A stretch of DNA of 64,000 nt, from the NCBI RefSeq assembly GCF_050920415.1, contig NZ_CP169309.1. The stretch is one strand, 5' to 3'. A program made the position numbers and the translations under genes. Below the pieces are notes generated by a model. It did not search any database and was not told the DNA's origin. It saw nothing but the letters and a program-made list of their open reading frames with translations. The DNA is from Escherichia coli. Its GTDB lineage: Bacteria; Pseudomonadota; Gammaproteobacteria; Enterobacterales; Enterobacteriaceae. Positions 29,548 to 63,155 of the stretch are shown one piece after another (the stretch's first letter is position 1; every line of letters starts with the position of its first letter).

Positions 29548-30137
29548 GTGAGTTATTACGCCTTTGAGGGGTTAATTCCAGTGGTTCACCCGACGGCGTT
29601 TGTCCATCCCAGTGCGGTCTTGATTGGCGATGTGATTGTGGGAGCCGGTGTCTACATCGGCCCACTCGCCTCACTGCGTGGTGACTACGGGCGGTTGACG
29701 TGCAAGCGGGAGCCAATATTCAGGATGGTTGCATTATGCATGGCTACTGCGACACTGACACCATCGTTGGGGAAAACGGCCATATCGGGCACGGAGCAAT
29801 CCTGCATGGTTGTGTGATTGGTCGCGATGCATTGGTCGGGATGAACAGCGTGATTATGGATGGCGCGGTCATTGGCGAAGAGAGCATTGTTGCCGCCATG
29901 AGCTTTGTCAAAGCAGGCTTTAGCGGCGAGAAACGTCAGTTGTTGATGGGTACGCCTGCCCGCGCTGTACGCAGTGTTAGTGACGACGAGTTACACTGGA
30001 AGCAGTTGAATACCAAAGAGTATCAGGATCTTGTCGGCCGCTGCCATGTAGCGTTACATGAAACGCAGCCGTTGAGACAAATGGAGGAAAATCGCCCCCG
30101 TTTGCAGGGGACGACGGATGTGACGCCGAAACGGTGA
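29548..30137 (+). pseudogene. caiE: caiE split by an apparent 1-bp deletion (frameshift near 29698)
   Basis: Two ORFs in different frames (29527..29817 and 29700..30137) together cover CaiE; the first diverges after GDYGRL and the second resumes at (V)QAGANIQDG. Span is 590 nt, one short of the 591 expected for 196 aa plus stop. Confidence 0.7.
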
Positions 30138-30828: not shown

Positions 30829-30858
30829 AAAAAAAAACGGTCCTCATCAGAGAACCGT
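30829..30858 (-). terminator. Intrinsic terminator downstream of carB
   Basis: Seen in sequence (minus strand): ACGGTTCTC-TGAT-GAGGACCG followed by a T9 run (plus-strand A9 at 30829..30837). Confidence 0.6.
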
Positions 30859-53903: not shown

Positions 53904-55397
53904 TTAGCCCCAGGTCACTGCTTCTGGTTTATCACCTCTGGCTTTCATTAGAGAATCATTATCAATATCACTTTTATATTTTAAAAACTTACCATACATC
54001 TGTTTTTCAATATCTGGTTTTTTACCGATCAGATTAAGTGTTTCAAAACGATCAGATTTAAGATTATAGAGATATTTCGGTTTATTATTGCGATCGATAA
54101 TCATCTTCCAGTCACCATCACAGATCGCCCATTCATCGGTTGGATCATCCTGGAATGGCATATCAATCCCGAAAATTAATGGCTTTTCGCGTTTCAATGC
54201 TTTTTGCTCAAGAACAGGAACCAACGATTCGCCATCAAAAGTGCGGTCCGTCGGTAATTTGAAGTTCATCATTTTCGCCAGCGTAGGCATCCAGTCCAGA
54301 CCATAAACGGGAGTATCTGAAACCATTCCCTTTGGAAGATGCTTTCCGTATTTAATAATCGCCGGAACACGGATGCCGCCTTCCCAAAGATTATCCTTGC
54401 GACCACGTAATCCATCAGTTTCCCCTGCCAAATTCAGTTCATAAACTTTACGTGCTTCACGGGTTACTGGGCCGTTATCACTGGTAAAAATAACGATGGT
54501 GTTATCTTCTTCACCCATCGCTTTGATTTTATCCAGTACTTTTCCAACCTGAGCATCCAGATAACTGATGTTGGCATAATATTCCCCCACACCACGCCAG
54601 GGTTTATCCGCCCAGTCGCCATAAAATAAATCAGGATGCTGCTTCTGATACGCGCTCATATATTGTGAGTACATGTCGAGGTATTTTTTGGGCGAAGCCA
54701 GGGGGCTATGCACTTCGGTAAAAGCGACATAAAGGAAGAAAGGCTTACTATCCTTTTTGTTATCCAACCAGTTAACGACTTCCGAACTGACATACTCACC
54801 ACTCATTTTATCGGCACGAGGTGTGGGTTGCCCGTTACGCAACCAACCCGTCGGATACACCATGCCAAAACGGGGACGCTCCTTCGCATTATCCAGAGTA
54901 GCGTCGGTAACAAAACCCGCCGTATTAACCAGTGAGTAATCAAAGCCCATATCTTTTGCCTGAGGCTGATCGGTACGATCGCCGCCTGCATTCAGATGCA
55001 GCTTACCCATCATTGCCGTGTCGTACCCTTGCGCTTTGAGTAGATTAGCAATCGTGAGTTCATTACGCCCTAATGCCACATCTTTTCCCGTTGGTATCCA
55101 TGAACGTATGCCGGTACGAAATGGCATCCGCCCCGTTAATAACCCCGCTCGCGAAGGAGAACTTAAGGGAGCTGGGGCATAGTAGTCAGTAAATTTGACG
55201 CCCTCCTGGGCAAGCCTGTCAATATTGGGGGTTTTAACGATCTGATGACCATATGTTGCTAAATCGCCATAACCTAAATCATCCGCCATAATAATGACTA
55301 AATTAGGTTGTTTAACCTCTGCGGCTAAGGCAGGACTAAAAGCATTCCCTGTGCAAACTGCAAGGCCGATCAAACTGGCCATTAACGTTTTCTGCAT
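53904..55397 (-). CDS. Secreted Ser-type sulfatase (arylsulfatase family)
   Basis: 497-aa ORF with signal peptide (MQKTLMASLIGLAVCTGNAFSPALA); sulfatase signature APAPLSSPSRAGLLTGR with Ser at the formylglycine position; N-terminal metal-binding region (IMADDLGYGDL). Confidence 0.85.
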   Translation of the reverse strand: MQKTLMASLIGLAVCTGNAFSPALAAEVKQPNLVIIMADDLGYGDLATYGHQIVKTPNIDRLAQEGVKFTDYYAPAPLSSPSRAGLLTGRMPFRTGIRSWIPTGKDVALGRNELTIANLLKAQGYDTAMMGKLHLNAGGDRTDQPQAKDMGFDYSLVNTAGFVTDATLDNAKERPRFGMVYPTGWLRNGQPTPRADKMSGEYVSSEVVNWLDNKKDSKPFFLYVAFTEVHSPLASPKKYLDMYSQYMSAYQKQHPDLFYGDWADKPWRGVGEYYANISYLDAQVGKVLDKIKAMGEEDNTIVIFTSDNGPVTREARKVYELNLAGETDGLRGRKDNLWEGGIRVPAIIKYGKHLPKGMVSDTPVYGLDWMPTLAKMMNFKLPTDRTFDGESLVPVLEQKALKREKPLIFGIDMPFQDDPTDEWAICDGDWKMIIDRNNKPKYLYNLKSDRFETLNLIGKKPDIEKQMYGKFLKYKSDIDNDSLMKARGDKPEAVTWG

Positions 55398-55417
55398 AAT
55401 TATTCCCTGATAAAAAA

Positions 55418-56178
55418 TTAGAAATCATAACCAAGCATATAAATCATTTGATCGCCAAAGCCATCGTAGCCCAGCTTATTATCGAAATAACGCCACGTCA
55501 CACTGGCTTTCCAGCGAGGATAGAACTTCCAGGCAATAGTTAAACCGCCATTTAACCCGTTCCGACCAAATTGCTGCTCCGTGTAAGCATCGTTCCTATC
55601 CAGTTCTATTTCATTCCAGTTAGATAAAACAAATTTTTCGTCAAATAACATAAATGGCAATACTGCTGTCCAGCCAACAACATAACCATTCCAACCATTC
55701 GTTTGACCATATTTAGCTGATACGTAGTCACCAGATTGATTATGTAATCCAATATACGGTTTACCCCCCCCCATGAACCATTCCAGCCGAGGTAGCCCAA
55801 ACCATAAAACATATCAAGATCGTCACCCCATGAGTTATCCCATTGACCATAGATCTTGCCAAAGAAAGTCATATCAGAGTCAAAGAGTCTGACATGCGTC
55901 ATTGCTGAAACTGTATGATTTCTCCCTGCTACAGCATGATTGAGTACATTACTTTCATAAAATGAGTAAAATTCTGCTTCTTTAAAATTTACCCCAAAAT
56001 CCGCAGTCACTTTCCATACTTCACCACGGTGAGTGTTTACAAATCCACTATTCCAGTCTGCATAACCCGCATTTATTGAACCAAAGGTTCCTTTATATTC
56101 TAATGAAGAATATGCAGGAAAATGATAGATAGCTGTTATCAGGGTACACGCAATAAGAAGTCGTCTTTTGGCAGACAT
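55418..56178 (-). pseudogene. Tsx-like outer-membrane beta-barrel channel, frameshifted in a G9 homopolymer
   Basis: ORFs 55606..56178 and 55418..55774 in different frames; signal-peptide-like N-terminus (MSAKRRLLIACTLITAIYHFPAYS), aromatic-rich beta-strand composition, C-terminal ...YMLGYDF. The frames meet at the homopolymer at 55764..55772. Lies 20 bp upstream of the sulfatase. Confidence 0.75.
55764..55772. repeat. Homopolymeric tract C9 (G9 on the coding strand) inside the channel gene
   Basis: Seen in sequence: TTA-CCCCCCCCC-ATGAACC. Coding strand reads TCA TGG GGG GGG GTA AAC (out of frame); 10 G would give TCA TGG GGG GGG GGT AAA CCG = S W G G G K P. Confidence 0.9.
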
Positions 56179-56690
56179 ATAATATGTTCTCCATTCATTG
56201 TTTTTATGATTCCATAGGAATTAATACACCAGACAATTCATTTTTATTAAGAATGACCAAGCCAGTATATTTAAAGATGACTATCGAAGCGTGATGAAGA
56301 TCGCAGATTACTTTTGCGAACGGGCGGAGAGATATCGTGTTTCAGAAAATGTGTCTGTTTTAAATATCACCCTTTGATTTATAGGCATTTTTCATGATGA
56401 ACTTAGCATTGACTGCTGAACGTATTTCTTTGTCTCTCTATAGTATTACACTAACCTTTAATAATTAATTTCCTTTAGCTATTCACTTTTGATAGAGGAA
56501 AACACCTTTTTTTTGTGAATCCCTGGATATATTTAAGTTAAATAAATTGATGTATTGAAATATTATTCCGTAAAAATGCGAGGCGTCTTCAGAAAAAGAA
56601 TTGATAAAACAGAAGTGAATTAAAAGCGCTGTATAATAGCGGCGGGTGCTTGAGGCTATCTGTCTCAGGCATTAGCTGAACGGCAGATAG

Positions 56691-56745
56691 AGAAAAGCCC
56701 CGAGTGATATTTTACCATCAACCCGAGGCCCCCTATATGCTGAAC
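56691..56745 (-). ncRNA. sokC: Putative SokC antisense RNA of the hokC locus (approximate)
   Basis: Placed by analogy to K-12, where the ~55-nt sokC overlaps the 5' end of mokC on the opposite strand. Boundaries are not determined from this sequence. Confidence 0.35.
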
Positions 56746-56946
56746 ACATGTAGAGTGCCTCTTACTGACCGTAAGGTCAAGGAGAAGAGAGCAATGAAGC
56801 AGCATAAGGCGATGATTGTCGCCCTGATCGTCATCTGTATCACCGCCGTAGTGGCGGCGCTGGTAACGAGAAAAGACCTCTGTGAGGTTCACATCCGAAC
56901 TGGCCAGACGGAGGTTGCTGTTTTCACGGCTTACGAATCCGAGTAA
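56737..56946 (+). CDS. mokC: MokC, overlapping regulatory reading frame of hokC
   Basis: In-frame upstream extension of hokC (MLNTCRVPLTDRKVKEKRA-MKQHK...); 69 codons sharing the hokC stop. Confidence 0.6.
   Translation: MLNTCRVPLTDRKVKEKRAMKQHKAMIVALIVICITAVVAALVTRKDLCEVHIRTGQTEVAVFTAYESE
56794..56946 (+). CDS. hokC: Type I toxin HokC (Gef), small membrane peptide
   Basis: 50-aa reading frame MKQHKAMIVALIVICITAVVAALVTRKDLCEVHIRTGQTEVAVFTAYESE, the Hok/Gef sequence. Confidence 0.85.
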   Translation: MKQHKAMIVALIVICITAVVAALVTRKDLCEVHIRTGQTEVAVFTAYESE

Positions 56947-57019
56947 GAGCAACGGCGGGGAGTGATCCCCGCCACTTTACAGGTGCTCGCATATCTTCAA
57001 CGCACCCTATTTTTACCCA

Positions 57020-57043
57020 AGCCTGCCCACAGGCAGGCTTTTG
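57020..57043 (+). terminator. Hairpin plus T-run at the 3' end of the hokC transcript
   Basis: Seen in sequence: AGCCTGCC-CAC-AGGCAGGCT followed by TTTT, between the hokC and dnaJ stops. Confidence 0.45.
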
Positions 57044-57049
57044 GGGAGG

Positions 57050-58180
57050 TTAGCGAGTCAGGTCGTCAAAAAACTTCTTCACACCATCAAAGAAGCTCTT
57101 TGAGCGCGGACTGTTGTGCTCGCCGGTTGGGCCACCGAAGCTTTCTTGCAGCTCTTGCAGCAGCTGTTTCTGCTTCTCGTTCAGGCCTACCGGTGTTTCG
57201 ACGACAACGCGGCACAGCAAATCACCCTGTGCGCCGCCGCGGACAGACTTGACGCCTTTACCGCGCATACGGAACAGCTTACCGGTCTGGGTTTCGCCAG
57301 GCACTTTCAGTTTGACGCGGCCATCAAGGGTCGGTACTTCGATTTCGCCCCCCAGCGCCGCCATAGCGAAGTTGATCGGGACTTCGCAATACAGGTTGTT
57401 GCCTTCACGCTCGAAAATCGGGTGCTGTTTAACCTGAACCTGAACGTACAGATCGCCTGCCGGTGCGCCATGCTCGCCCGCTTCACCTTCGCCCGCAAGA
57501 CGGATGCGGTCTCCAGTGTCCACCCCTGCCGGAATTTTAACGGACAGCGTTTTGCTGCGCTCAACACGCCCATGACCATGACATTTGTTGCACGGATCTT
57601 TGATCAGCGTACCGCGGCCCTGACAGTGTGGACAGGTCTGCTGCACAGCAAAGAAGCCCTGGCGCATCTGCACCTGACCAGAGCCATGACAGGTCGGACA
57701 GGTCTGCGGCTGTGTACCTGGTTTTGCACCGCTACCGTGGCAAACGTCACACTCTTCCAGAGTCGGAATGCGGATCTCTTTGGTCACGCCACGTACAGCT
57801 TCTTCGAGGGTGAGCTCCATGTTATAGCGTAAATCAGCACCGCGCGCCGCACGTTGACGACCACGTCCGCCGCCAAAAATATCGCCGAAAACGTCACCAA
57901 AAATATCGCTGAAGTCTGCGCCGCCGCCAAAACCGCCGCCGCCCATGCCGCCTTGCTCAAACGCAGCATGACCATACTGATCGTATGCCGCACGTTTTTG
58001 CGAGTCGGTCAGAACTTCATAAGCTTCCTTGATCTCTTTAAATTTCGCCTCGGCCTCTTTGTCACCCTGGTTACGGTCCGGGTGGTATTTCATGGCCAGG
58101 CGTTTGTAGGCCTTTTTGATTTCACGCTCTTCCGCTGTTTTGGAAACGCCTAAAATCTCGTAATAATCTTGCTTAGCCAT
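57050..58180 (-). CDS. dnaJ: Chaperone DnaJ (Hsp40)
   Basis: ORF track 57050..58210; start at [12 protein letters not shown] (376 aa); J-domain HPD motif, Gly-rich linker, four CxxCxGxG zinc-finger repeats. Confidence 0.97.
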
Positions 58181-58268
58181 CTTTTTTGATTTGCCCCTAG
58201 ATGAATGCACGGGCGGAGAGGAAATTCCCCTTCGCCCGTGTCAGTATAATTACCCGTTTATAGGGCGA

Positions 58269-60185
58269 TTATTTTTTGTCTTTGACTTCTTCAAATTCAG
58301 CGTCGACAACATCGTCATCTTTCGCGTTGTTTGCAGAAGCATCAGCACCGGCAGTCTGCTGCTGGGCATGTTGCTGCTGGGCGATTTCCATCAGTTTCTG
58401 GGAAACCTGTGCCAGTTCCTGCATTTTCGCTTCGATAGCGGCTTTGTCTTCACCTTTCAGAGCAGTTTCCAGTGCAGTCAGCGCAGACTCGATAGCAGTT
58501 TTGTCGTCAGCTGGCAGTTTATCGCCTGCTTCTTCAACCTGCTTACGGGTGCTGTGCAGCAGATGGTCGCCCTGGTTGCGAGTCTGTACCAGCTCTTCAA
58601 ACTTACGGTCAGCTTCGGCGTTCGCTTCTGCGTCGCGTACCATTTTCTGGATTTCATCTTCGTTCAGACCAGAAGAAGCCTTGATGGTGATCTTCTGCTC
58701 TTTACCGCTGTTTTTATCTTTCGCGGAAACGTGCAGGATACCGTCAGCATCGATATCGAAGGTAACTTCGATCTGCGGCATACCGCGCGGTGCCGGGTTG
58801 ATGCCATCCAGGTTGAACTGACCCAGAGATTTGTTATCAGCCGCACGTTTACGTTCACCCTGCAGCACATGGATGGTTACCGCAGACTGGTTGTCTTCAG
58901 CGGTAGAGAACACCTGGCTGTGCTTGGTCGGGATAGTGGTGTTTTTCGCGATCAGCGTCGTCATCACACCGCCCATGGTTTCGATACCCAGAGACAGCGG
59001 GGTAACGTCCAGCAGCAGTACGTCTTTTACGTCACCAGTCAGAACACCACCCTGAACAGCAGCACCGATGGCTACAGCTTCGTCCGGGTTAACGTCTTTA
59101 CGCGGCTCTTTACCAAAGAATTCAGCAACTTTCTTCTGAACCATTGGCATACGAGTCTGACCACCAACGAGGATAACGTCGTCGATATCAGATACGGACA
59201 GGCCAGCGTCCTGCAGTGCAACTTTCAGCGGCTCAATGGAACGGTTTACCAGATCTTCAACCAGGCTTTCCAGTTTCGCACGAGTCACTTTGATGTTCAT
59301 GTGTTTCGGACCGGTCGCGTCTGCAGTGATGTACGGCAGGTTAACGTCGGTCTGCTGAGCGGAAGACAGCTCGATTTTCGCTTTTTCTGCCGCTTCTTTC
59401 AGGCGCTGCATTGCCAGCGGATCGTTGCGCAGGTCAATGCCCTGATCTTTCTTGAATTCTTCAACCAGATAGTTAATCAGACGGCTGTCGAAGTCTTCAC
59501 CACCCAGGTGGGTATCACCGTTGGTTGCCAGAACTTCGAAGGTTTTTTCGCCGTCAACTTCGTCGATTTCGATAATGGAAATATCGAAAGTACCACCACC
59601 CAGGTCATAAACCGCGATAGTACGGTTGCCAGTACCTTTGTCCAGACCATAAGCCAGCGCAGCTGCGGTCGGTTCGTTGATGATACGTTTTACTTCCAGA
59701 CCAGCGATACGGCCTGCGTCTTTGGTTGCCTGACGCTGAGCATCGTTAAAGTATGCCGGTACGGTAATAACAGCTTCAGTTACCGGTTCGCCCAGGTAAT
59801 CTTCCGCGGTTTTCTTCATTTTTTTCAGCACTTCAGCAGAGATCTGCGGCGGTGCCATTTTCTGGCCTTTAACTTCGACCCATGCGTCGCCGTTATCAGC
59901 AGCAATAATTTTGAATGGCATGATGGAAACATCACGCTGTACTTCTTCGTCCTGGAAGCGGCGGCCAATCAGGCGTTTAATCGCAAACAGGGTGTTTTGC
60001 GGGTTTGTCACTGCCTGACGTTTAGCCGGCTGACCAACCAGAGTTTCACCATCCTGGGTATAGGCAATGATAGAAGGCGTGGTGCGATCGCCTTCGGCGT
60101 TCTCCAGCACTCGCGGAGTGGTGCCATCCATAATCGCTACACAAGAGTTGGTAGTACCCAGGTCGATACCAATTATTTTACCCAT
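58269..60185 (-). CDS. dnaK: Chaperone DnaK (Hsp70)
   Basis: 638-aa [24 protein letters not shown]... Confidence 0.98.
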
Positions 60186-60350
60186 CTAAACGTCTCCACT
60201 ATATATTCGGTCATCATGTGGTTGTGAGTCTGTAATAGGGGCGAAACGTCTGGTTTCAACTGCCCAATTTCATTTTTTTGCAGACTCACTCACTGCGGTT
60301 GACTACTAAATGGGGTCGTAACCCACGTCATCAAGGGGGAGATGCAAAAA
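60186..60350 (-). promoter_or_regulatory. dnaK heat-shock (sigma-32) promoter region
   Basis: Minus strand shows CTTGATG...CCCCATTT (plus 60308..60345) and TTGAAAC...CCCCTATT (plus 60234..60259), matching the sigma-32 consensus TTGAAA / CCCCATNT. Confidence 0.7.
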
Positions 60351-60560
60351 TTTTTTGTGCTTTTGCGCAGAAATTTCGCGATATGCCAGAACAAGACACG
60401 AAACTGACAGCAATTTTATTCATATAAAGAATGAATGGCAGCCAAGACATTCATAGAAAAATTGTAATAAAAAGAAAATATTACGTACCTGAATCTTCTC
60501 TTTATCAGCAGTAAACTAGTGGGTATTCATCCCCTACCTCTCCCCACTAAGAGAATACTT

Positions 60561-60965
60561 ATGAAATCCGTTTTTACGCTTTCCGCCAGCCTGGCGATTA
60601 GCCTGCTGCTGTGCTGCACGGCGCAGGCAAACAACCATAAAATCCTCGGCGTCATTGCGATGCCGCGTAACGAAACCAACGATCTGGCGCTGAAACTTCC
60701 TGTTTGTCGCATTGTTAAACGCATTCAACTCACTGCCGACCATGGCGATTTACAGTTAAGTGGTGCATCGGTTTATTTCAAAGCCGCCCGTAGCGCCAGT
60801 CAGAGCCTGAATATTCCTTCAGAAATAAAAGAAGGGCAAACCACTGACTGGATCAACATTAACAGCGATAACGACAATAAACGCTGCGTCTCAAAAATCA
60901 CCTTTTCCGGCCATACGGTGAACTCATCGGATATGGCCACGCTGAAAATTATCGGCGACGACTAA
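60561..60965 (+). CDS. yaaI: Periplasmic DUF2541 protein YaaI
   Basis: ORF track 60519..60965; start at [23 protein letters not shown] (signal peptide; 134 aa). Confidence 0.85.
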
Positions 60966-60990
60966 CGCCAGAATATAGAAGCCACAAAAA

Positions 60991-61704
60991 ATGAATGTTA
61001 ATTACCTGAATGATTCAGATCTGGATTTTCTCCAGCATTGTAGTGAGGAACAATTGGCAAATTTCGCCCGGCTGCTCACCCATAATGAAAAAGGCAAAAC
61101 TCGCCTCTCCAGCGTACTGATGCGCAACGAACTGTTTAAATCGATGGAAGGACATCCCGAGCAACATCGCCGCAACTGGCAGCTGATTGCCGGAGAATTA
61201 CAGCATTTTGGTGGCGATAGTATCGCCAACAAACTGCGTGGACACGGTAAATTGTATCGGGCCATTTTGCTCGATGTTTCAAAACGATTGAAGCTGAAAG
61301 CCGACAAAGAGATGTCTACGTTTGAAATTGAGCAACAGTTACTGGAACAATTTCTGCGTAATACCTGGAAGAAAATGGACGAGGAACATAAGCAGGAGTT
61401 TCTGCACGCGGTCGATGCCAGGGTGAATGAGCTGGAAGAGCTGCTGCCGCTGCTGATGAAAGACAAATTATTGGCAAAAGGCGTGTCGCATTTGCTTTCC
61501 AGCCAATTGACCCGCATTTTACGCACCCACGCAGCAATGAGCGTACTTGGGCATGGTTTGCTGCGCGGCGCGGGGCTGGGAGGCCCTGTAGGCGCGGCAC
61601 TAAATGGGGTTAAAGCGGTCAGCGGCAGCGCCTATCGCGTGACGATTCCAGCCGTACTGCAAATCGCCTGCCTGCGCCGGATGGTTAGTGCCACTCAGGT
61701 CTGA
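60991..61704 (+). CDS. yaaW: UPF0174 protein YaaW
   Basis: 237-aa ORF at the yaaW position between yaaI and satP. Confidence 0.85.
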   Translation: MNVNYLNDSDLDFLQHCSEEQLANFARLLTHNEKGKTRLSSVLMRNELFKSMEGHPEQHRRNWQLIAGELQHFGGDSIANKLRGHGKLYRAILLDVSKRLKLKADKEMSTFEIEQQLLEQFLRNTWKKMDEEHKQEFLHAVDARVNELEELLPLLMKDKLLAKGVSHLLSSQLTRILRTHAAMSVLGHGLLRGAGLGGPVGAALNGVKAVSGSAYRVTIPAVLQIACLRRMVSATQV

Positions 61705-61852
61705 TACCGGAAACCGGGGAAAATTTTCATTTTCCCTTCAAAAGATCGTAGACACTGCCCCACTGGCTGATTATTATGCCGCGCCCTGAAAACACTACAG
61801 TTATTCAGGGAAATTATTTCACCATTCATTCGATGATGATTTTTGAGGAATT

Positions 61853-62419
61853 ATGGGCAACACTAAGTTGGCTAATCCGGCACCGCTGGGCCTGATGGGC
61901 TTCGGCATGACCACCATTCTGCTTAACCTGCACAACGTGGGTTATTTCGCTCTTGACGGTATTATTCTTGCAATGGGCATTTTCTACGGCGGCATCGCGC
62001 AAATTTTTGCTGGTCTGCTGGAGTACAAAAAAGGCAACACTTTCGGTTTAACCGCATTCACCTCTTACGGTTCTTTCTGGCTGACGCTGGTTGCGATTCT
62101 GCTGATGCCGAAACTGGGTCTGACCGATGCGCCAAATGCACAGTTCCTTGGTGTCTACCTTGGTCTGTGGGGCGTATTTACGCTGTTTATGTTCTTCGGC
62201 ACGCTGAAAGGCGCACGCGTTCTGCAATTCGTTTTCTTTAGCCTGACCGTGCTGTTTGCCCTGCTGGCGATCGGTAACATTGTCGGTAATGCCGCGATCA
62301 TCCACTTTGCCGGCTGGATTGGTCTGATCTGCGGTGCCAGCGCAATCTATCTGGCGATGGGTGAAGTACTGAACGAGCAGTTTGGTCGCACCGTTCTGCC
62401 GATTGGTGAATCCCACTAA
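61853..62419 (+). CDS. satP: Succinate/acetate:H+ symporter SatP (YaaH)
   Basis: 188-aa six-helix ORF MGNTKLANPAPLGLMGFGMTTILLNLHN... Confidence 0.93.
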   Translation: MGNTKLANPAPLGLMGFGMTTILLNLHNVGYFALDGIILAMGIFYGGIAQIFAGLLEYKKGNTFGLTAFTSYGSFWLTLVAILLMPKLGLTDAPNAQFLGVYLGLWGVFTLFMFFGTLKGARVLQFVFFSLTVLFALLAIGNIVGNAAIIHFAGWIGLICGASAIYLAMGEVLNEQFGRTVLPIGESH

Positions 62420-62429
62420 TTGTTTTGAG

Positions 62430-62456
62430 ATCCCCCCGCATGGGGGGATTTTTTTA
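62430..62456. terminator. Bidirectional intrinsic terminator between convergent satP and mog
   Basis: Seen in sequence: ATCCCCCCGCATGGGGGGAT (perfect palindrome) flanked by T-run on the plus strand and A-run upstream. Confidence 0.75.
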
Positions 62457-63041
62457 TTCGCTAACTTCGCGTCTTGCACTCTTCGGTCTGAATGCTGCAA
62501 CCACTTCCGGTGCCGTTTCAACGTATGGCCCTTCCAGCAACTGAATGCAGTACGGTACGCTGGCAAAAATACCGTGCACCACAACGTTACCCTCAGCGTC
62601 CTTCACACCTTCCAGCGTCTCTTTAATAGACTTCGGCTGACCGGGTAAGTTAAGGATTAGTGCTTGTTTGCGAATCACGCCCACCTGGCGCGAAAGGATC
62701 GCGGTTGGAACAAAATGCAGGCTAATTTGGCGCATCTGTTCACCAAAGCCTGGCATCTCGCGGTCCGCTACTGCCAGCGTCGCATCGGGCGTGACGTCAC
62801 GACGCGCCGGGCCAGTTCCGCCCGTGGTGAGCACCAGATGGCAACTCATTTCATCCACCAGCTCACACAACGTTTGCTCGATGATCGCCTGCTCGTCGGG
62901 GATTAAGCGGGTTTCCAGTTCAAACGGCGTGGTTAGCGCCGATGTCAGCCATTCTTCCAGCGCAGGGATGCCTTTATCCTGATAAACGCCGCTGGATGCG
63001 CGATCAGAGATGGAAACTAAGCCAATACGTAAAGTATTCAT
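62454..63041 (-). CDS. mog: Molybdopterin adenylyltransferase MogA
   Basis: ORF track 62454..63044; start at MNTLRIGLVSISDRASSGVY (195 aa). Confidence 0.93.
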   Translation of the reverse strand: MNTLRIGLVSISDRASSGVYQDKGIPALEEWLTSALTTPFELETRLIPDEQAIIEQTLCELVDEMSCHLVLTTGGTGPARRDVTPDATLAVADREMPGFGEQMRQISLHFVPTAILSRQVGVIRKQALILNLPGQPKSIKETLEGVKDAEGNVVVHGIFASVPYCIQLLEGPYVETAPEVVAAFRPKSARREVSE

Positions 63042-63155
63042 CAAGATTTTTCCGTTTAAACAGTCTCGTTAAACAGAATGATACACTGCGAAGGGAGTGA
63101 CAGACAGGCTTCAGAAGAGGTAGCGTGACCGACTTCCCGGTCACGCTAAGAATGA

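Follow-up and report, generated by a model that had tools for sequence, protein, structure and literature searches.

Why is an outer-membrane channel gene of Escherichia coli broken exactly at a run of nine Gs: by a sequencing error, by a surface switch caught in its off phase, or by decay? The stretch of DNA that we analyzed, 64,000 nucleotides in length (the window), reads CCCCCCCCC (C9) on the plus strand at positions 55764-55772, which is G9 on the coding (minus) strand. The next base on the coding strand, at 55763, is a lone T, the remnant of an ancestral T6 run on the 3' side of the Gs. With alleles written by the lengths of the two runs, the window is in the G9T1 state: 10 nt in total, one base short of the 11 nt that intact genes have at the same junction. 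The channel gene (55418-56178, minus strand) is accordingly 761 nt long, against 762 nt and 253 aa in intact orthologues, and is split by the tract into two ORFs. The N-terminal ORF (55606-56178, minus strand, 190 aa) would encode the signal peptide and strands 1-6 followed by an out-of-frame tail. The C-terminal frame (55418-55774, minus strand, 118 aa) begins MGGGKPYIGLHNQ at an ATG overlapping the run, lies in the -1 frame relative to the upstream one, and would encode strands 7-12; gene callers report a 77-aa PF03502 fragment from it. When the run was set to G10 in silico, a single 253-aa ORF reading ...NGSWGGGKPYIGLHNQ... was obtained, and G7 gave 252 aa, in agreement with the initial annotation, which had stated that 10 or 7 Gs would restore one frame of about 255 aa. 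The tract is the sole lesion in the gene, with no further stop or frameshift. It is also the only G9/C9 run in the window. In dinucleotide shuffles such runs averaged 0.13, and at least one was present in 11 of 100 shuffles; a G9 run is therefore unusual, but not impossible, by composition alone, and its significance comes from the comparative data. The longest other runs are A9 (30829-30837), C8 (46019-46026), and T8 (56507-56514); the A9 run lies between caiF and carB and has the same length in MFDS1022581, a near-identical complete genome.

The product of the gene is predicted to be a barrel of the Tsx/OmpK family. The repaired protein matches Pfam Channel_Tsx (PF03502, E = 4e-14, residues 105-253), and in-frame alleles also carry precomputed PF03502 matches. 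An AlphaFold2 model of an intact allele, built with an alignment of 36 diverse homologues, has a pLDDT of 92.7, a signal helix at residues 3-18, and 12 long strands, and the protein ends in an aromatic residue (...GYDF). The top PDB match of this model by Foldseek is E. coli Tsx (1TLW; TM 0.66, E = 1.3e-7). Together with the two ORFs, these matches bear out the earlier description of a Tsx-like channel gene split exactly at the G9 run. The likeness to Tsx and to Vibrio OmpK thus lies in PF03502, the predicted 12-stranded barrel, and the fold match, but the channel is only 15% identical to Tsx, a PDB sequence search with the intact protein gave no match at E <= 0.01, and its score with NCBIfam PRK11528 (115 bits) is below the cut-off of 282. 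In the nearest RefSeq genome the gene is annotated as "outer membrane protein OmpK, frameshifted."

The channel is also unlike Tsx in being linked to a sulfatase. It is the first of three co-oriented genes that form an islet between mokC/hokC and nhaA, followed after 20 nt by a gene for a secreted sulfatase (53904-55397, minus strand; 497 aa, SSPSR motif, signal peptide) and by a 419-aa gene without a Pfam match (52516-53775, minus strand), which is intact in the window's lineage. Of 5426 complete E. coli genomes, 1273 carry the islet, and in these RefSeq names the channel "outer membrane protein OmpK." Because of the sulfatase linkage, the substrate of the channel is probably something other than a nucleoside. 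The two genes are probably co-transcribed. A promoter and terminator scan of 55300-56750 gave little information, with no terminator between them and fewer promoter-like sites than in shuffles. Translation of the G9 allele ends at 55606, with some 210 nt left to the start of the sulfatase gene, so that reduced sulfatase expression through polarity is a possible further consequence of the frameshift. Of additional note, a 90%-identity protein cluster with 253-aa channels also contains 497-aa sulfatases and is represented by a sulfatase. This is presumably a clustering artefact from a fused or overlapping gene call, so that the size of this cluster is not a count of channel genes.

If the G9 of the window were a sequencing or assembly error, the true run would be G10 and the gene intact. 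Several platforms are prone to errors in long G runs, the only indel between the window and the closest complete genome in a 24-kb comparison is in the tract, and a C8 run elsewhere differs in length in one Logan contig. Against these points, the exact 190-aa product of the G9T1 state (P0016) occurs on 55 contigs, in 72 blocks of the public collection, and all 24 of its contigs that were read, from independent NCBI, ENA, and Logan assemblies, are G9T1. They include the complete genome AP025751.1 and AEXD01000004.1 (GCA_000194575.2), the latter being 100% identical, without a gap, to window positions 45601-64000 over 18,395 nt, so that the window probably derives from this genome or from a clone of it. 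Moreover, the same kinds of source (NCBI and Logan) consistently give G10T1 in a sister lineage, so a G10 run can be resolved by such assemblies. The initial annotation had held that the run could equally be a homopolymer sequencing error; with G9T1 in at least 24 independent contigs and 72 blocks, we reject this for the window and consider an error very improbable. Annotators should therefore not "repair" the gene to G10, which in any case is not the wild type, as described below.

The other C8 run deserves a separate remark. Logan contig SRR12406318 (L033) has C7 in place of C8 at 46019-46026, in the 3'-terminal part of an intact gene for 490 aa (44600-46072, plus strand). In the nearest genome this gene is a "hypothetical protein"; a type III effector (EspX1) is annotated in other strains at some point of the matched 24-kb region. 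The C7 form would frameshift the last 15 or so codons of the 490-aa gene. Either a further homopolymer varies in length here, or assemblies of this type now and then get run lengths wrong.

The initial annotation implicitly took G10 as the wild type, but orthologues are intact with G5T6, with GGGGCT6, or with G6T5. Alleles of the ST131 type read TGG GGC TTT TTT AAA (GGGGCT6) and those of the UTI89 type TGG GGG TTT TTT AAA (G5T6), both encoding W-G-F-F-K, while strains 2012C-4221 and GF60 have TGG GGG GTT TTT AAA (G6T5), encoding W-G-V-F-K. E. albertii also has WGFFKP at the tract position, and the wider family is aromatic or hydrophobic there. The ancestor was thus G5T6 or GGGGCT6, coding for WGFFKP, and G10 is not the wild type. 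Among the 1273 complete genomes that have the gene, identity to the window reaches 99% in just one, and a long G run is likewise found in one. With an ST131-type junction query, 932 of 933 matching complete genomes align as the interrupted GGGGCT6, and a scan of JGI metagenomes for alleles with seven or more Gs gave no match. The tract is thus not maintained across the population that carries the gene. The window's own allele is a mosaic: A recombinant patch of about 100 nt (55764-55867, minus strand; gene nt 312-415) is of the UTI89 type within an otherwise ST131-type allele, and the tract lies at the 3' edge of this patch. The uninterrupted G5T6 junction came with this patch.

Draft assemblies of ST131-type alleles also contain products that would result from T6 to T5 at the same junction (P0023 and P0024, on 80 and 73 contigs), as well as other truncated products, namely one with a single-nucleotide deletion some 25 nt upstream (40 contigs) and a form ending at ...GWNG (48 contigs). 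The T5 form was found in none of the 933 complete RefSeq genomes. These T5 products may be draft or long-read errors, and we set them aside as evidence for a hot spot.

How could a long G run arise from two short ones? The predicted products of hypothetical alleles were looked up exactly in a collection of 15 billion proteins, and the DNA was then checked. Every in-frame step is present at the DNA level in public assemblies. For G5T6, each of two protein backbones is represented by at least 1000 contigs. G6T5 occurs on 357 contigs on one backbone and in 34 blocks on another; because it is found on two backbones, it arose at least twice. G7T4 is represented by GCA_024755885.1, G8T3 by the ENA metagenome assembly ERZ926437, G9T2 by 5 contigs, and G10T1 by 11 contigs. 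The exact look-ups returned no G7T1, G11T1/G10T2, G12T1, G6T1, or G13T1, and on the window's own protein backbone they returned no G5T6, G6T5, G7T4, or G8T3. Each step resembles a T-to-G substitution right at the junction of the abutting homopolymers, with the total kept at 11 nt. Short-read base calling can misread a T after Gs as a G. G7T4 and G8T3, with one assembly each, and the distinction of G9T2 from G10T1 are therefore less secure; G6T5 and the alleles with 9 to 10 Gs also occur in complete genomes. Dislocation, or misalignment, mutagenesis as described by Kunkel predicts a substitution at a homopolymer junction. Double slippage also shifts the boundary of adjacent repeats (Lang, Parsons and Gammie 2013, PMC3755907).

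The initial annotation had equated a fixed pseudogene with a uniform G9 in all isolates; when tract length is compared across related genomes, 8, 9, and 10 Gs are found. The long run occurs in two sister lineages, A (the window's) and B. Lineage B is set apart from the window by 5 SNPs per 2.1 kb and diverges sharply beyond about 53725, and the divergence from there onward looks like a recombination block. Its alleles are all in frame, being G10T1 (L010-L013, L038, and L039) or G9T2 (L014-L017). Four of its contigs (L011, L014, L017, and L039) have the 419-aa islet gene split into 201 and 179 aa with the channel in frame, so that A and B have lost different islet genes. Within lineage A, by far the most assemblies are G9T1; as rare states, the out-of-frame G8T1 is found in the complete genome MFDS1022581 and in SRR25278280, the out-of-frame G8T2 in ERR3970463, and the in-frame G10T1 in SRR9018578. 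In the first 50 kb, MFDS1022581 and the window are separated by 5 SNPs without any indel, and in the 24-kb comparison spanning the tract the sole indel is G8 versus G9. Over an 18.4-kb flank, about 12 SNPs but at least four tract events are seen among nine to ten genomes of lineage A, and on and off lengths coexist in genomes separated by 0-5 SNPs per 18 kb. Some rare states, namely G7T4, G8T3, G8T2, the lone lineage-A G10T1, and the distinction of G9T2 from G10T1, come from one or two short-read assemblies each and could be base-calling or assembly artefacts beside a long G run.

Lineage B was used as the outgroup to order the alleles of lineage A. The G8T2 strain is basal and has kept the lineage-B bases at both 55912 and 54122. 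At the latter position, a derived T is common to the window, the other G9T1 genomes, and those with G8T1. SRR9018578, the G10T1 strain, has a derived T at 53596 in common with one G9T1 strain. One reversion from G9 to G10 is therefore a more parsimonious reading than a G10-to-G9 loss that occurred independently two or three times; this draws on a single shared SNP, and parsimony is weak for a hypermutable site. The tract could serve as a fast-evolving marker inside this E. coli lineage. As to what this lineage is, its assignment to cryptic clade I is doubtful, the complete clade-I genomes named in PMC10100065 being only 96.8-97.2% identical to the window over 24 kb. As a further difference among close relatives, AP025751.1 carries a DDE transposase (IS) at 7921-9039, between dnaJ and hokC, which the window is without. 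An IS in this place is also familiar from K-12.

From these data, we suggest a four-step pathway to the allele of the window. The starting point is the TGG GGG TTT TTT AAA form (W-G-F-F-K), with abutting G5 and T6 homopolymers. The boundary between G and T then moved base by base toward the T side with the 11 nt held constant, as the allele series shows, the likely cause being misalignment (dislocation) or double slippage at the repeat junction. Once 9 to 10 Gs are reached, single slips would alter the total length, which would account for the polymorphism seen, with G9T1 (the out-of-frame state of the window), G8T1, G8T2, and occasionally G10T1 again as products. Finally, the off state would have come close to fixation in the window's lineage, where a dispensable gene would be decaying while reversion stays possible. 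We regard it as probable, with some reservation, that the locus is of this kind: a young and revertible pseudogene with a recently born hypermutable tract, a result of mutational decay and not a selected contingency locus.

Several observations speak for decay. In lineage A, off alleles occupy about 72 blocks and on alleles one or two contigs. At positions 138-139 the ancestor has F-F and the poly-G alleles have G-G or G-V; none of 36 homologues has Gly there, position 139 is hydrophobic in 35 of the 36, and P141 is nearly invariant. In the AlphaFold2 model, residues 138-139 are at the start of strand 7 (137-151), after a turn (130-136), which by the standard topology of outer-membrane proteins would place them at the periplasmic rim. 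Owing to this position, the replacement of F138-F139 by Gly might be tolerated, and the in-frame allele has been retained in the sister lineage although F138/F139 is changed to Gly-Gly or Gly-Val. The neighbourhood is eroding as well: The RefSeq annotation of the near-identical MFDS1022581 and our own frame analysis identify pseudogenes of caiE (29548-30137; a frameshift, which is not at a run of 6 or more), ccdB (13978-14292; an internal stop), and a fimbrial chaperone and usher (46900-49049; frameshifts and an internal stop), and islet gene 3 is split in lineage B. Indels in E. coli become exponentially more frequent as a run lengthens, with G:C runs of 8 bp already acting as hot spots (PMC8510543); a run of 9 to 10 Gs is therefore expected to slip whether or not this is useful. 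Against decay, the five T-to-G steps all go in the same direction, which is more orderly than neutral drift predicts, and selection for a mutable tract might lie behind it. Moreover, the frameshift is the only lesion in a protein otherwise identical to the in-frame sister alleles, and on and off alleles are present within one near-clonal background.

These last points are what the main alternative builds on, namely that the locus is phase-variable, with on/off switching of a surface channel under selection and the window caught in its off phase. Tsx-family and OmpK channels are typical phage and colicin receptors. The channel would be a likely phage or colicin receptor and a putative uptake port for the sulfatase substrate, and its stochastic switching would be advantageous. 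The tract is indeed a repeat inside the coding region of an outer-membrane protein in which changes of one unit shift the frame, its growth is directional, the gene is without a second lesion, G8, G9, and G10 are found in genomes with identical flanks with the in-frame G10 strain nested among G9 strains, and the sister lineage is consistently in frame. Of the phase variation raised by the initial annotation, the length variation is real, since G8T1, G8T2, G9T1, and G10T1 are all found among near-identical flanks; the idea of a working switch fares less well, since the off state is overwhelmingly dominant in the window's lineage and the on product introduces Gly at two conserved hydrophobic sites where Gly does not occur in the family. 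In addition, the tract is missing from nearly all of the 1273 complete genomes with the gene, and E. coli possesses mismatch repair and is reported to avoid simple repeats in its coding sequences (PMC3315296). We therefore think selected switching unlikely, though it deserves to be kept in mind. A related but more doubtful proposal is that we see a contingency locus at its birth in a mismatch-repair-proficient enterobacterium, in which boundary migration, with all of its intermediates still to be found in nature, made a switching tract and selection for switchability drove its growth.

It is also conceivable that the G9 allele still gives some full-length channel by recoding, either by -1 ribosomal frameshifting or by RNA polymerase slippage that adds a G. 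The downstream frame is indeed -1, G GGG GGG fits a slippery heptamer of the X XXY YYZ type, and long homopolymers can cause transcriptional slippage. Known bacterial slippage sites, however, are A/T-rich, and a search of the RNA fold downstream of the tract for a frameshift stimulator found no unusual structure (z = -0.26). With in-frame alleles existing beside the G9 allele, nothing requires recoding, and we give it hardly any credence. Our preferred reading remains a young, revertible pseudogene.

A homopolymer frameshift in a surface-protein gene, potentially phase-variable, is a well-known kind of feature, but this instance appears to be undescribed: Our literature search found nothing specific on this E. 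coli OmpK-like gene or on poly-G phase variation in E. coli. If only decay is involved, the locus amounts to a routine pseudogene call. More unusual is that the origin of the tract can be traced stepwise to a pair of short, abutting runs, in a species normally without such loci. The natural series from G5T6 to G10T1 documents how short abutting homopolymers can be converted step by step into a frameshift-prone tract. It is direct population-level evidence for the origin of hypermutable repeats, and potentially of contingency loci, in a species that normally avoids repeats.

The locus recalls several known systems. In Neisseria gonorrhoeae, alleles of pgtA with and without the tract reportedly coexist within the species. 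The poly-G/C contingency loci exemplified by this gene and by those of C. jejuni and Bordetella pertussis (PMC1891110) share with the channel gene an intragenic run of 8-10 Gs in a surface-protein gene, in which one-base changes toggle the reading frame. In contrast to those cases, E. coli is proficient in mismatch repair and is not known to have a repertoire of loci of this type, and the tract here is confined to one rare lineage in which the off state is almost fixed. The C7 tract of M. tuberculosis glpK (bioRxiv 10.1101/717272) is similar in that a single coding homopolymer confers heritable and revertible loss of function, with length polymorphism seen among clinical isolates; it differs in that a phenotype and a selection regime have been demonstrated for the glpK variants. 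For the origin of the tract, the closest likeness is to the double slippage (PMC3755907) and the dislocation mutagenesis mentioned above, in which a "substitution" at the junction lengthens one run and shortens the other while the total length stays constant. The double-slippage paper describes single events in mismatch-repair-deficient yeast, whereas the series described here is a natural one of five steps, from G5T6 to G10T1, that is distributed among lineages of E. coli and has a frameshift-prone run as its end point.
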